A stretch of 11,743 nt of DNA. It comes from a virus (taxonomy: Duplodnaviria > Heunggongvirae > Uroviricota > Caudoviricetes). This document shows positions 3,001 through 6,000 of this stretch, one piece after another; within the stretch, counting starts at the first letter, position 1; each line of letters starts with the position of its first letter. The position numbers were made by a program. The stretch lies in the IMG/VR virus record IMGVR_UViG_2645727555_000019, one strand, 5' to 3'.

Positions 3001-6000
3001 TTCTATTTTAAGCTTGATAGTTTCATACAAAACAACAGTTGCGCCTGTTTTACATAATTCCCGGCCGTCATACGCACGAGACCAATAACACAACCAGTTC
3101 TCGAGATCTTCTCGAGTATAGGTTTTGCAGGCCAGTCCCTCTGCCATTTCCACGATTTCATCGCCTGGTGCTGTTAACTCATAGCCATTCAACAACAAGA
3201 AGACATAACCAGCCATCATAGCTGTTCGTTTGTTTGCATTAGCAAATGGATGATTCTGAATCAGACTTTCAATCAATACTGATGCCAGTACAAACATGTC
3301 ATTAGTCTGTTCATACCATCGAACCATGCTGGGACGAGACTGAGAAGAACTTAAATTATCAACACTCAGCACACTAACAGGTTCATCTGGTGTTTGAAGC
3401 TCAATTAAAAGGCGATTAATTTCGGTAAGATCATCAAACGAAAGGTAGTGCACTCCTTCAACAATCTCAGCCATAGAGCACAATACCCATCATTACACTT
3501 TTGAAAGTTCTTCCATTGCCTTCTCGTAACGAGAAAAACCGAAATCGAAAGCATTTTTCACCTGCTCACGATGAGTGCAATTTTCATCGATAGCCGGGCG
3601 CGGAGCTGCCACAACGCTTTTATCGCGAGGGGGAATAGTCAATCGCGGGTGTTTTTTTAGTGCGTAGCTCATTGGGTGTACCCTTACTTCTCCGTCCTGT
3701 TCTTTAACAAAAATCAAGTCAATACAAAATTAGTCAGGCTAATGTTGTTAGCATAGCCTAATACCGATCGTATTCACAACCACAGTACGTGAAAAAACCC
3801 GCCGAAGCGGGTTAAGTGCGGGTGCGTTGAGGATGCCTGACACATCAGAGGTGGCGAGGGATTTCTCCCTCGCCTGGTCTCTTACTCCTCAGGTTCGTAA
3901 GCTGTGAAGACAGTGACCTCCGTCTGGCCGGTTCGGATTCGTACCTCGCAGAGGTCTTTCCTCGTTACCAGTGCCGTCACAATGACGGTAATACAGATGA
4001 CGATCAGGGCGACTAACATCGCCTTTTGCTGCTTCATAGCCTGCTTCTCCTTGCCTTTCGGCGCGTAAGAGGCTAACCTACATGTGTCTAGCATGAAATT
4101 GGCCTCAGATTAATGTTAGGCGTCTTGCAGGACGCGTAATGTTAACTGGGGCTTTTCTCTGTCTGCCTTACGGTGGCATGCCCGAGGCAGACAGCCTCAA
4201 GCACCCGCAGCAATTCTACTTAACTCTCGCTTTACCGCAAACCGTTTTTACCCGATATGGGAATTCCCATATCGTAATGAATTCAGTTCCCTAGTCGATC
4301 CATCAAAAACACAACCAGGCAGTAAACGCCCACAACAGCAATAACAGCCAGCGCACCTTCCATTGCCAGTGATATATCATCCGACATATTCCCTCCTTTG
4401 GTGTTAATCCCGGCGAACGTTTTTACCCCCACCGACAAATAACATATACTAAAAAAGTGATAGCCATAGCAACGCCTGTAATTGCAAATGCTTCAGGCCA
4501 GTTCATTGGCGCACCTCCTGCGGCGGTTCTGGTAGCGGCATCCAGTCGGTTACATTGCGGCTCTGTGTTTCGAAAAATTCATCACCATCACGGACTACAT
4601 CAAAAAACTCACCGTCTCGATATTGCGCATAAAGAACGAATGCGCCATCACATAAAATAATTACGTGCTGACCGTCATCCGGCATTCGCTCACTACAGCT
4701 TATCCAACCATCCAGAGTTACCGGATGGTTGGTTGACGTTTCCGAGATTTCCCGAAAATTATTGGTTGACGAACCCTTCTTTTCCCGAAAGTTTCCAGCC
4801 TGAAGCATGGCGGCGCTGTCTGGCGGGGCAGCATATAGCGGCACGTATATTTCCGGTTCCTTATCAGCACCGGGTTGCTCTTCCAGTGAGAATGTCTTTC
4901 CGGTAAATCGATTCATATAAAGCACGGGCTCTGCTTCCAGCGAAGCCTGAGCAACAAGGGCCAGTGCTAAATCCAACTCAATTGCCTCGAGAGAATTTTT
5001 GAATGCTGTCTGTTTTACTGCAAATTTCATCGCCTTTACATTTTCACTAACATGACTGATTAACTGCTCTTTTGTAAAAGTGGTCATCTCATTCTCCTTT
5101 GATGCGAATGCCAGCGACAATTGAAGCCTGATAGCTAATTTACTCACAGTACCGCCTCCTGAAAATTCCCCTGATAGAAAGCCAGCACGCGCTGCATAAC
5201 TTCACTATTCCGGCACTCGCGACAGATTATGTTCAGGCGTCTATCGTAGCGGCGAATTTCTCCGTCTGGTAACTTTCGAATCAATGTCTGGTCAGTTGTT
5301 TTCTCCGGTGTCTTACGCCATACGCGATACACCTGTTCTGATGCAAAAACACCGTATTTACCGGACATGTATAAATCGCCACAAGCCAGTACATCCACAA
5401 GGCAACGTCTGACTGAATGCCAGCCTGCTCCCGTCGCTCTCTCCAGTTGCGATATCGTCATGCGTTCATTTTTGCGTACCAATCCGATAATTCGTGCCTT
5501 CAGTTCTTCCCGCTGTTCGTGTGTAAAAGGTTTCGCCATAAGCGCCTCCGGCAATCACTTTTCCGACACAATACGACCGGATGAATCGACAATCTGTCGA
5601 ACAATATCCCGGTGCTTGTTCAGCTCCCGCAGCGCGGCGCAGACTCGCTCCCACTTCTGGACCTGTTTTTTGGCGCGACGAAGTTCTCGACTGGCAGCAT
5701 GCAGCGATGGAAGCATCACCGAACTGGCAGATTTTTCGGTGAATGATGGAACTTCTCGGATAAACTCATCTGTACTGGCCTTTGCCGTGCTCTCTGATGC
5801 CAACGGAAAACGATTCATTTCATCGCCTGCCGCGCTGTTTTCTGCGTCATGGTGTGATTGCTTATTCTGCGATGATAAGGCGCTCAAATCGCCGTTTTCG
5901 ACATCAGGCATTTTGTAACGGAATTTTCCGTTGCTGATCTCGCGTACCAGGCGTCTCGTTGCTGTTACCACCGCCAACGTGGAAGCAACCTTACGAGTGC

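Follow-up and report, generated by a model that had tools for sequence, protein, structure and literature searches.

The window analysed here, i.e. the whole stretch of viral DNA of 11,743 nt, carries on its minus strand a hok/mok/sok type I toxin-antitoxin locus which is complete in sequence and extends over positions 3792–4241. Within a lambdoid prophage, it occupies the interval between the replication and nin regions: the surrounding genes comprise cI/cro/cII-type regulators and replication genes, with NinB, RusA, and Q further on. This neighborhood agrees with an earlier interpretation made without database searches (hereafter the sequence-only reading), which had placed the locus inside a prophage. 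The stretch is carried by 663 complete E. coli genomes, and the gene in the window is named hokD in RefSeq. From the closest complete genome, AST198, approximately 50 kb around the locus were fetched. No structural genes are annotated in this region and several of its annotated genes are partial or frameshifted; judged on these 50 kb, the AST198 prophage may be defective. AST198 also bears an orphan hok leader fragment next to a truncated transposase.

The mok open reading frame (ORF) encodes 70 amino acids (3882..4094, minus strand; ATG at 4094) and is in frame with hok, which encodes 51 amino acids (3882..4037, minus strand; ATG at 4037; MKQQKAMLVALIVICITVIVTALVTRKDLCEVRIRTGQTEVTVFTAYEPEE). 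The last 51 codons of mok are thus Hok, and both frames are uninterrupted, as had been claimed. Hok matches the Pfam family HOK_GEF (PF01848) over residues 6–47 with 79.7 bits (cut-off 22) and contains the conserved cysteines C15 and C30, while the NCBIfam Hok-family models match it below their curated cut-offs (46.8 vs. 73). At least 999 contigs carry the exact 51-aa sequence under the name HokD, and the exact 70-aa Mok product is found on 191 public contigs. Two Shine-Dalgarno (SD) sequences were read from the minus strand, GAGG (4103..4106), located 8 nt before the mok AUG, and AGGAG (4047..4051) for hok. The latter abuts the −35 box of the Sok promoter on the opposite strand (4051–4056), base 4051 being common to both. 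For comparison with the family, 69 hok loci from Escherichia, Shigella, Kluyvera, Photorhabdus, Pantoea, Erwinia, Citrobacter, Buttiauxella, and others were aligned. The region of the hok SD, GCAAGGAGAAG, is nearly invariant among them, and an in-frame start 19 codons upstream of hok is present in 29 of the 69 loci. As is characteristic of the family, an overlapping mok frame with its own SD lies upstream of hok, and coupling of mok and hok translation is predicted from this arrangement.

A generic promoter and terminator scan of positions 3600–4500 missed the hok promoter, the Sok promoter, and the hok terminator; all three were located by homology and folding instead. The −10 box of hok, TAGAAT (4213..4218, minus strand), is positioned 6 nt upstream of +1. 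Across the 69-locus alignment, a TAnAAT-type hexamer occurs at a constant distance from the conserved start GGGTGCTTGAGG; R1 hok has TATGAT at the place where the window has TAGAAT. The putative −35 box, TTTGCG (4236..4241, minus strand; 17-nt spacer), was placed relative to the −10 box and +1, with TTGCGG (4235–4240, minus strand; 16-nt spacer) as an alternative; by consensus it is weak. The full-length hok mRNA is predicted to comprise about 412–415 nt (3792..4206, minus strand), with its start at ~4206 according to position 1 of the Rfam model and the alignment with the R1 +1 site, and its 3′ end defined by the terminator. Its minimum free energy is −177.5 kcal/mol (z −8.1). The intrinsic terminator, AACCCGC-UUCG-GCGGGUU followed by a U-tract (UUUU; 3792..3813, minus strand), forms the 3′ hairpin of the full-length fold, which bears out the proposal that a terminator closes the hok transcript. 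It is kept in K-12 hokD, PPompW, HannyBb, and pPE4, and replaced in hokW.

On the plus strand, the Sok promoter consists of the −35 box TTGCCT (4051–4056), a 17-nt spacer, and the −10 box TAACCT (4074–4079), and aligns with the R1 Sok promoter, TTGCGC-17-TATCCT. It was overlooked in the generic sigma-70 scan because its −10 box matches the consensus at only 3 of 6 positions. Both hexamers are identical to those of sokW, whose −10 box was destroyed in a pro-less construct with primer YO-421 (PMC8621323). Of the 69 family loci, 31 have TTGCCT and 40 have TAACCT or TAATCT. The promoter points over the mok start codon (4092–4094), in line with the suggestion of the sequence-only reading that a plus-strand promoter drives an antisense RNA across it. 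The predicted Sok RNA has a length of about 70–75 nt (4086..4159, plus strand; start deduced from the position of the −10 box). Its 5′ tail would be able to base-pair with the mok AUG and be followed by a long hairpin, the near arm of which overlies the mok SD, and by a U-tract; the folding energy is −32.9 kcal/mol (z −6.7). The tip of the hairpin carries a subfamily-specific extension, GCGUCUUGCAGGACGC (4120..4135, plus strand), an insertion relative to the Rfam consensus that was found in about 26 of 67 family loci and is absent from R1 and PPompW. The window sequence thus contains a cis-encoded Sok gene as in other family members, and its transcript is predicted.

Folding of the hok mRNA at different lengths recovered the regulatory elements of the family, all on the minus strand. 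The 5′ translational activator element tac, GGGUGCUUGAGG (4195..4206), pairs with nt 19–31 in the nascent 40-nt RNA, forming a 5′ hairpin, with the fold-back inhibitory element fbi in the full-length RNA, and with the upstream complementary box ucb in the 3′-truncated RNA. The element fbi, CCUCAACGCACCC, is located at 3820..3832, and in the minimum-energy fold of the full-length RNA, 12 base pairs connect it to tac and one C is bulged. In the full-length fold, the ucb or anti-SD, AAGCCCC (4148..4154), sequesters the mok SD by pairing with GAGGC; in the truncated fold, its partner is tac. In the fold of the RNA truncated at position 3846, the mok SD region pairs with the downstream complementary box dcb, GCCUC (4069..4073). 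The resulting GAGGC...GCCUC hairpin, the Sok target, is capped by a CUAG loop of the YUNR type (4088..4091), which is supported by both the truncated fold and the Rfam consensus. In the hok/sok family, such YUNR-type loops act as U-turns. All four R1-type mRNA states and pairings were recovered by minimum-energy folding alone, and they match the model summarised in PMC9841398, from which the pairing definitions were taken.

The alignment of the 69 loci agrees with these predictions. For tac-fbi, 81.8% of the cells are paired compared to 32–53% in slid controls, and position 4 of this helix covaries (40 U-A, 22 C-G); for the 5′ structure, 81.2% of the cells are paired compared to 35–51% in the slid controls. 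As read from the alignment, the hok regulatory architecture is maintained across genera by purifying and compensatory selection.

An Rfam scan, proposed as a check in the sequence-only reading, gave a match to the family 'sok' (RF01794) at 4032–4206 (minus strand) with 116.9 bits (gathering cut-off 59; E 1e-26), i.e. far above chance, and the window leader covers the covariance model in full (positions 1–157 of 157). With all main features found in the range 3791–4280, where an intact hok/mok/sok locus had been assumed, the locus is very probably a sequence-intact module of the HokD/HokW subgroup and an accessory gene of a lambdoid E. coli prophage. The novelty that had been implied did not hold, given that the gene is already listed as hokD in RefSeq and hok loci of prophages have been described in the literature. 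The copy in the window is an ordinary, already known family member, one more correctly recognised hok/sok among thousands annotated, and as such it matters little.

A perfect 22-nt palindrome, CGATATGGGAATTCCCATATCG, is located at 4253..4274, where the hok cassette joins a small ORF upstream of it, and is not part of the hok transcript. The sequence-only reading had reported a near-palindrome in the hok leader. A palindrome does exist at this place, but the sequence typed for it, ATATGGGGAATTCCCATAT, is absent, and the element does not belong to the leader: it spans −48 to −69 from hok +1 (~4206), upstream of the −35 box. The number of perfect 22-nt palindromes expected from shuffled sequences is 0, and as RNA it would form a hairpin of −14.5 kcal/mol. 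Homology to hokW-type cassettes begins 3 nt past the palindrome, which therefore appears to lie at a mosaic joint. Next to hok leaders, it occurs with the same spacing in 72 IMG/VR contigs and in PPompW phages. It is missing from most hok/sok loci, including hokW-sokW, R1, HannyBb, pPE4, and plasmid copies; since hokW-sokW and R1 are functional without it, hok/sok does not need the palindrome. The palindrome recurs in many phages that are unrelated to each other; orphan copies were found upstream of hok, before intrinsic terminators, and in GC-rich phages, and 50 kb of the AST198 prophage contained no second copy. Searching the literature for the sequence of the palindrome returned only unrelated eukaryotic matches and no published description.

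The 20-nt core of the palindrome, GATATGGGAATTCCCATATC, is identical to a sequence in the KilA-N genes of many phages (Pfam PF04383; some encoding BstA-type defence proteins), where it specifies D-M-G-I-P-I-S in the central part of the KilA-N domain. These phage copies span 33% to 56% local GC, and compensatory codon changes among them retain self-complementarity, so that the palindrome should be functional somewhere. In contrast to these genes, the window contains no KilA-N ORF. The corresponding frame reads ...LPDMGIPIS, with only 10 codons open before D-M-G-I-P-I-S and a stop directly after it, and neither the window nor 50 kb of the AST198 prophage gave a KilA-N profile match. Comparison of the window flanks with KilA-N genes gave 14/24 identities on the plus-strand side only, with a shuffle p of about 0.004 before correction, which is borderline after correction for 12 tests. 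As a KilA-N gene, the window palindrome would at best be a relic.

A more far-reaching view, which we regard as unlikely, is that the palindrome is an orphan copy of an undescribed functional hairpin or symmetric site whose home is the middle of KilA-N genes, including BstA-type genes, and whose orphans are active elements. Selection at synonymous sites together with a compensatory pair (ATG/CCC vs. ATC/CCG) may keep the two 8-nt arms complementary; the orphan copies could serve as hairpins at transcript ends or as insulators, as decoys for KilA-N DNA-binding proteins, or as preferred recombination joints by which cassettes such as hok/sok move from phage to phage. It is also rather improbable that the palindrome is a regulatory operator or an RNA/DNA hairpin that is functionally part of the hok locus, controlling the hok promoter from −58 or insulating it from upstream read-through. 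The perfect 22-mer has its midpoint about 58 nt before +1, where activator sites are typically found, it recurs at the same spacing by the hok leaders of the 72 IMG/VR contigs and the PPompW phages, its RNA hairpin is stable, and compensatory changes elsewhere keep it self-complementary. However, most hok/sok loci lack it, among them the two functional ones named above, it lies at a mosaic joint, and the 72 hok-adjacent copies are near-identical and recent and thus no independent evidence of selection. Furthermore, the plus-strand flank is similar to the codons located after the palindrome in KilA-N genes, and another hok-adjacent type retains a longer KilA-N remnant, DMGIPISRLTQSVKA, both of which point to a gene relic.

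Further candidates for the palindrome were rejected. The published anti-BstA (aba) element, which is 63 bp long, lies at the start of a bstA gene, and carries CCCGCC direct repeats at its ends, differs in sequence and architecture, and there is no adjacent bstA. HK022 Roi binds within its own gene. A Roi binding site was nevertheless discarded, as the HK022 P-Q region including roi contains no copy of the palindrome, even with 3 mismatches; moreover, HK022 Roi is not a DMGIPIS-type KilA-N protein. An operator beside a KilA-N gene does not fit either, with no KilA-N gene in the fetched flanks of 80 out of 80 hok-adjacent copies; for other non-coding copies of the palindrome, the fetched flanks contained none in 56 of 57 cases. 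For a unit of palindrome plus terminator, no Rfam family matched at the gathering cut-off or at E ≤ 5, and no copy was found in E. coli genomes. The palindrome either is an RNA/DNA element of KilA-N/BstA-type genes that has so far escaped recognition or serves as a signal for recombination in phage mosaicism, and it is the only part of the locus with real upside for further work.

The sequence elements, the predicted alternative pairings, and the conservation and covariation within the family come from the present analysis; transcription, processing, RNase III cleavage, and toxicity are transferred from R1 hok/sok and hokW-sokW. On this basis, the weak and presumably constitutive promoter with the −10 box TAGAAT would give rise to a stable hok mRNA of about 412 nt, the 5′ end of which would be held in a local hairpin while the RNA is nascent. 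After completion, 5′ tac and 3′ fbi would pair and ucb would mask the mok ribosome binding site, and the full-length RNA would therefore be neither translated nor bound by Sok. Slow 3′ trimming would delete fbi, whereupon tac would move to ucb and the target hairpin of mok SD and dcb would form, a state in which translation of mok and coupled translation of hok become possible. The short-lived Sok RNA from the plus strand would pair over the mok start, leading to a block of translation and cleavage of the duplex. Once Sok synthesis stops, the 51-aa inner-membrane protein Hok would be made and the cell depolarised. By analogy with hokW-sokW, the likely role of the locus is to assist host lysis and phage release after induction and/or retention of the prophage. 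Because hok is co-directional with the early rightward operon and Sok is opposed to it, we infer that antiterminated read-through after induction could both provide hok RNA and suppress Sok. If the AST198 prophage is defective, a role in phage release would be moot in that strain.

An intact sequence does not prove activity, because the chromosomal loci hokA, hokB, and hokC, which are sequence-intact, were reported to cause no post-segregational killing, as cited in a preprint (bioRxiv 10.1101/2025.08.07.668861); according to the same source, they are not activated by rifampicin either. The locus could be intact and nevertheless functionally silent, with Hok never made from its own signals and the module persisting by hitch-hiking in a widespread prophage. 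Both promoters are weak by consensus and the AST198 prophage may be defective, which, together with the behavior of hokA, hokB, and hokC, would suit such silence. Against it, every regulatory pairing is kept, no disabling change was found, and the architecture is under selection across genera as judged from the alignment. Also, hokW-sokW, 89% identical, functions in a lysogen under the control of its native signals, and the Sok promoter hexamers are the same as the validated ones. We consider a silent locus improbable, and transcription and toxicity of the window copy may be expected by analogy with hokW-sokW (PMC8621323). That the locus is a decaying remnant, i.e. a pseudogene comparable to K-12 hokD or to loci disrupted by IS elements, is extremely unlikely: remnants of this kind are frequent, the whole leader is missing from K-12 hokD, and AST198 has an orphan leader fragment beside a truncated transposase, but the window locus shows no frameshift, stop, IS, or truncation, covers the full length of the Rfam model, and has both ORFs and both mRNA ends.

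Returning to the sequence-intact module, its closest characterised relative is hokW-sokW from Sakai prophage 5, an Stx2 phage of E. coli O157:H7 (Takada et al. 2021, PMC8621323), which belongs to the same subgroup and likewise resides in a lambdoid prophage. DNA identity is 89.1% over the cassette and 91.8% over promoter and leader. Both Hok proteins have 51 amino acids, of which 44 are identical, the 7 differences being mostly C-terminal, and the two loci share the Sok −35 and −10 hexamers and the extended tip of the Sok hairpin. They differ in the 3′ untranslated region (UTR), which is only 78% identical and in hokW is without the AACCCGC-UUCG-GCGGGUU terminator, and in the upstream joint, where the hokW promoter directly abuts a small hydrophobic ORF without the palindrome. 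For hokW-sokW, toxicity and the antitoxin activity of Sok were demonstrated, Sok was lost after mitomycin C, a twofold effect on phage release was observed, and partial dependence on RNase III and Hfq was reported (PMC8621323). As the window copy possesses a strong terminator of its own and differs in its upstream joint, it would be useful for testing a 'lysis helper' role of the hokW type in a second prophage background.

K-12 hokD (relF) of the Qin cryptic prophage carries the same RefSeq gene name, and its product differs from the window Hok at 3 positions (I9V, L16I, A42T). The hok coding sequences are 96.8% identical and the 3′ UTRs with fbi and terminator 96.6%. However, K-12 hokD keeps only the part from the hok SD to the terminator, whereas relBE takes the place of promoter, tac, ucb, mok start, Sok promoter, and Sok gene; its leader is unrelated to that of the window, as the 'identity' there is only 46%. 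By sequence, the window copy is the complete ancestral form and the intact counterpart of K-12 hokD, which in turn is seen to be a beheaded version of a complete prophage module.

Compared to hok/sok of plasmid R1 (parB), the founding and mechanistically dissected member, DNA identity is only about 51% and Hok identity 41%, but the order of elements is the same and they can be aligned one by one: tac, ucb, mok SD, target loop, dcb, hok SD, and fbi are common to both, and in each locus the Sok promoter overlaps the hok SD. The Sok hairpin is about 20 nt longer in the window than in R1. As the window copy is located on a prophage and R1 hok/sok on a plasmid, post-segregational killing of the plasmid type is not its obvious role. 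The same conformational switch is predicted for both, with compensatory differences in tac/fbi, GGCGC/GCGCC in R1 vs. GGGUGC/GCACCC in the window.

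The hok/mok/sok type I toxin-antitoxin locus on the minus strand (3791-4280) had been proposed by the sequence-only reading to be apparently intact, and both this observation and its interpretation held: as judged from its sequence, the locus is a complete member of the family. The reading frames are uninterrupted as described, since a 70-aa ORF (mok; 4094..3882, minus strand) comprises as its C-terminal part the 51-aa ORF of Hok, which starts at 4037 (MKQQKAMLVALIVICITVIVTALVTRKDLCEVRIRTGQTEVTVFTAYEPEE). Hok matched Pfam HOK_GEF with 79.7 bits and also the NCBIfam Hok models, the latter below their curated cut-offs. 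The Rfam scan that had been recommended as a check for sok was run and gave a match to RF01794 ('sok') over the full model length at 4206..4032 on the minus strand (116.9 bits; gathering score 59); the model is oriented like the hok leader, and its end falls at the hok AUG.

The single elements were placed by alignment with R1-type plasmid hok/sok, Stx2-phage hokW-sokW, PPompW, HannyBb, pPE4, a Klebsiella plasmid copy and K-12 hokD. On the minus strand, these are the hok promoter -10 (TAGAAT, 4218-4213), the mRNA start at about 4206, the activator tac (GGGUGCUUGAGG, 4206-4195), the upstream complementary box ucb (AAGCCCC, 4154-4148), the mok SD (GAGG, 4106-4103) and AUG (4094), the target-loop CUAG (4091-4088), the downstream complementary box dcb (GCCUC, 4073-4069), the hok SD (AGGAG, 4051-4047) and AUG (4037), the hok/mok stop (3882) and the fold-back inhibitor fbi (CCUCAACGCACCC, 3832-3820). 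The terminator expected to close the hok transcript is present at 3813-3792 (AACCCGC-UUCG-GCGGGUU-UUUU), and so is the plus-strand antisense promoter across the mok start, with the -35 hexamer TTGCCT (4051-4056) and the -10 hexamer TAACCT (4074-4079) spaced by 17 nt. The Sok RNA predicted from it (about 4086-4159, plus strand) has a 5' tail, a single long hairpin and a U-tract, with a folding energy of -32.9 kcal/mol (z -6.7). Its hairpin tip carries a GC-rich extension of 16 nt (GCGUCUUGCAGGACGC, 4120-4135, plus strand), which is common to about 26 of 67 family loci and absent from R1 and the Rfam consensus. Codon 47 of hok (Tyr47) is TAC followed by G (TACG at 3896-3899, minus strand), and editing at this motif would give Hok a third cysteine.

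By minimum-energy folding, the first 40 nt of the nascent hok mRNA formed a local hairpin sequestering tac (-21.2 kcal/mol), while the full-length mRNA was closed by a 12-bp tac-fbi stem with ucb paired to the mok SD (-177.5 kcal/mol, z -8.1). Without the last about 45-50 nt, tac paired with ucb, and pairing of the mok SD with dcb generated the target hairpin with CUAG in its loop. Thereby, the conformational programme of R1 hok mRNA, summarised in PMC9841398, is reproduced in the model for the window locus by minimum-energy folding alone.

For conservation of these pairings, 79 hok loci were collected by a protein-based scan with one genome per species, covering Escherichia, Shigella, Kluyvera, Photorhabdus, Pantoea, Erwinia, Mixta, Citrobacter, Buttiauxella and others; 64 of them were aligned with the window and four reference loci (n=69). 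The tac-fbi pairs of the window were standard-paired in 81.8% of cells vs 32-53% with the partner slid by 1-3 columns, and 40 sequences have U-A at pair 4 while 22 have C-G. Pairing in the tac-ucb stem, the 5' hairpin and the Sok-terminator hairpin reached 81.2% of cells vs 35-51% when slid, with both-sided changes at sixteen pairs. An in-frame mok start 19 codons 5' of hok, as in the window, is found in 29 of the 69 loci, the Sok -35 hexamer TTGCCT in 31, and TAACCT or TAATCT as -10 in 40.

A near-palindrome had been assigned to the upstream leader region. It is present, but was quoted with one G too many; its true form is a perfect 22-mer (CGATATGGGAATTCCCATATCG, 4253-4274), and its position at -48 to -69 relative to the hok start places it outside the hok leader. 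Homology to hokW-type cassettes starts 3 nt past the palindrome; on the other side, homology with the upstream small ORF of the HannyBb type reaches as far as the stop codon of this ORF, at 9 nt. The palindrome is therefore contained in about 35 nt of inserted sequence at a mosaic joint. It is absent from most hok loci, functional ones included, and is not part of hok/sok. Upstream on the minus strand, two small hydrophobic ORFs (4283-4438, ...GALAVIAVVGVYCLVVFLMDRLGN; 4423-4506, MNWPEAFAITGVAMAITFLVYVICRWG) lie just 5' of hok. In HannyBb, and likewise in the Stx2 phage and pPE4, homologues of one or the other extend right up to the hok promoter; thus the hok cassette recurs beside small membrane-peptide genes.

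The palindrome is widespread in phages, with the general form GATATGGG-RATY-CCCATATC (window 4253-4274; IMG/VR loci L009-L128, L208-L264 and L267-L418), and no published description of it was found in the literature. The exact 20-mer occurs on at least 120 IMG/VR contigs; 72 of those listed have it beside a hok leader at constant spacing, the rest in unrelated contexts. Inside KilA-N ORFs (Pfam KilA-N up to 94.5 bits) it encodes D-M-G-I-P-I-S, and the C-terminal half matched PADLOC BstA in two of four palindrome-bearing representatives tested. Eight KilA-N lineages, no more than 80% identical in amino acids and with a local GC of 33-56%, invariably use GAT, ATT, CCC and ATA to encode D, I, P and I, although six of them came from the exact-match scan, which fixes the palindrome codons by ascertainment and leaves the protein-based sample as independent support. 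All other invariant residues of this alignment use 2-4 codons each, and the sole core variation is the Gly third base (GGA/GGG) within the 4-nt centre. In the protein-based sample (19 clusters), the second codon is ATG in 16, all 16 of which have CCC, while the ATC variant (D-I-G-I-P-I-S) pairs with CCG to give GATATCGGAATTCCGATATC, also a perfect palindrome. A complete scan for the variant with C at position 6 yielded 74 loci, 66 with complementary arms (G at position 15); 34 of these 66 lie within KilA-N ORFs of at least five lineages, and none of the uncompensated loci does. This covariation of the Met/Ile and Pro codons argues for selection on self-complementarity, in the form of a hairpin (-14.5 kcal/mol as RNA) or of symmetric recognition.

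No KilA-N gene is located near the hok-adjacent palindrome in the flanks searched. Its plus-strand flank resembles the KilA-N codons normally following it (14/24, p about 0.004, uncorrected), and another hok-adjacent type keeps DMGIPISRLTQSVKA. The simplest reading of these sequences is that the hok-adjacent palindrome would be a KilA-N gene relic at the joint where recombination introduced the hok cassette. The wider distribution and covariation of the palindrome form a side finding beyond hok/sok.

The palindrome was also found directly 5' of intrinsic terminators, as a conserved, non-coding unit CTACCATACAAGC-palindrome-GACnnCCAGGGCCTCTTCGGAGGCCTTTTT on contig L258 (1486-1556) and at about 25 other IMG/VR loci (e.g. 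L213, L220, L236, L246, L250), in nin-like regions and often 3' of a C-5 DNA methyltransferase gene. This unit has the appearance of an sRNA or mRNA 3' end; the Rfam search gave no family, and it is absent from the complete E. coli genomes searched. On contigs L122 and L240, G-C pairs and a T-run lengthen the palindrome into a terminator-like hairpin, and GC-rich phages (L025, L034, L072, L085) carry it as well. On L019 (6840-6930) and L209 (13860-13950) it lies between copies of the direct repeat GGCAACCAATGCGCGCA(C)AAATT; this arrangement resembles iterons or an operator and sets the two loci apart from the other contexts.

In the prophage, hok is preceded by a cI-type repressor, cro- and cII-type regulators, replication genes and DUF1627, DUF977 and DUF551 proteins. 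It is followed by a Doc/Fic toxin (2989-3483, minus strand; 122 bits to TIGR01550), upstream of which lies a small ORF that matched no family (3493-3717), and by a RelE/ParE-like gene that has an MqsA/HigA-like HTH partner (2196-2938, plus strand). Together with hok/sok, these TA-like pairs (2196-3717) make three TA modules within about 2 kb. Further on, an ORF6N antirepressor-like gene and NinB (786-1196) follow, and in E. coli AST198 RusA and Q come next. C4 antisense RNA, its a1/b1 targets and isrK form a set that was detected twice in tandem (Rfam 47-75 bits, minus strand), once immediately upstream of the ORF6N gene (1970-2168) and once downstream of NinB (385-583), the latter with no antirepressor-like gene identified beside it within the window. 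Both sets are immunity modules of the P1/P7 type (immI-like), present in duplicate within 1.6 kb.

AST198 matches the 701 bp around the locus with 100% identity, many other genomes including the O104:H4 outbreak lineage do so with 98.7-99.1%, and 663 of 5,426 complete genomes carry at least 80% of these 701 bp; 1255-11653 of the window is 99.9% identical to the AST198 prophage. The RefSeq name of the hok gene is hokD. At least 999 public contigs carry the exact Hok sequence under the name HokD, and 191 have the exact 70-aa Mok form; in phage records, relatives are entered as 'MokW', 'HokD toxin', 'gef: phage maintenance protein' or 'host killer protein'. AST198 also contains an orphan hok leader/sok fragment without hok (L266 2224-2437 = 1737223-1737436; 91.7% identical to 4036-4249), which adjoins a truncated ISNCY transposase in a Qin-like remnant and is a possible source of cross-reacting Sok RNA. 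Assemblies under the names Veillonella, Acinetobacter, Xanthomonas, Streptomyces, Ferruginibacter and Oscillibacter contain near-identical E. coli-type or R1-type hok (L129, L147, L159, L198-L200, mostly short contigs), as does 'Actinobacillus phage' PP818812.1 (L008), which is 94% identical to the window; such copies are likely contamination or mis-assigned hosts.

The locus is already annotated, belongs to a thoroughly studied family and has a characterised near-relative. Of the characterised loci, hokW-sokW of Sakai prophage 5 is the closest: it is 89.1% identical over the cassette, agrees at 44 of 51 Hok positions and has the same hexamers in the Sok promoter (checked against primers published in PMC8621323). 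HokW is toxic and is neutralised by sokW expressed from its own promoter; upon mitomycin C treatment sokW disappears and HokW appears in a RecA-dependent manner, and removal of the locus halved phage yield (PMC8621323). In the window, hok runs in the direction of the early rightward operon, to which Sok is convergent; this suggests that antiterminated read-through after induction could supply hok RNA and interfere with Sok, as would fit the RecA-dependent loss of sokW. What K-12 hokD has in common with the window is confined to the hok SD through the terminator (96.8% identity in the coding sequence, 96.6% in the 3' UTR), and its upstream part is relBE throughout. K-12 hokD is therefore a truncated version of the complete form seen in the window.
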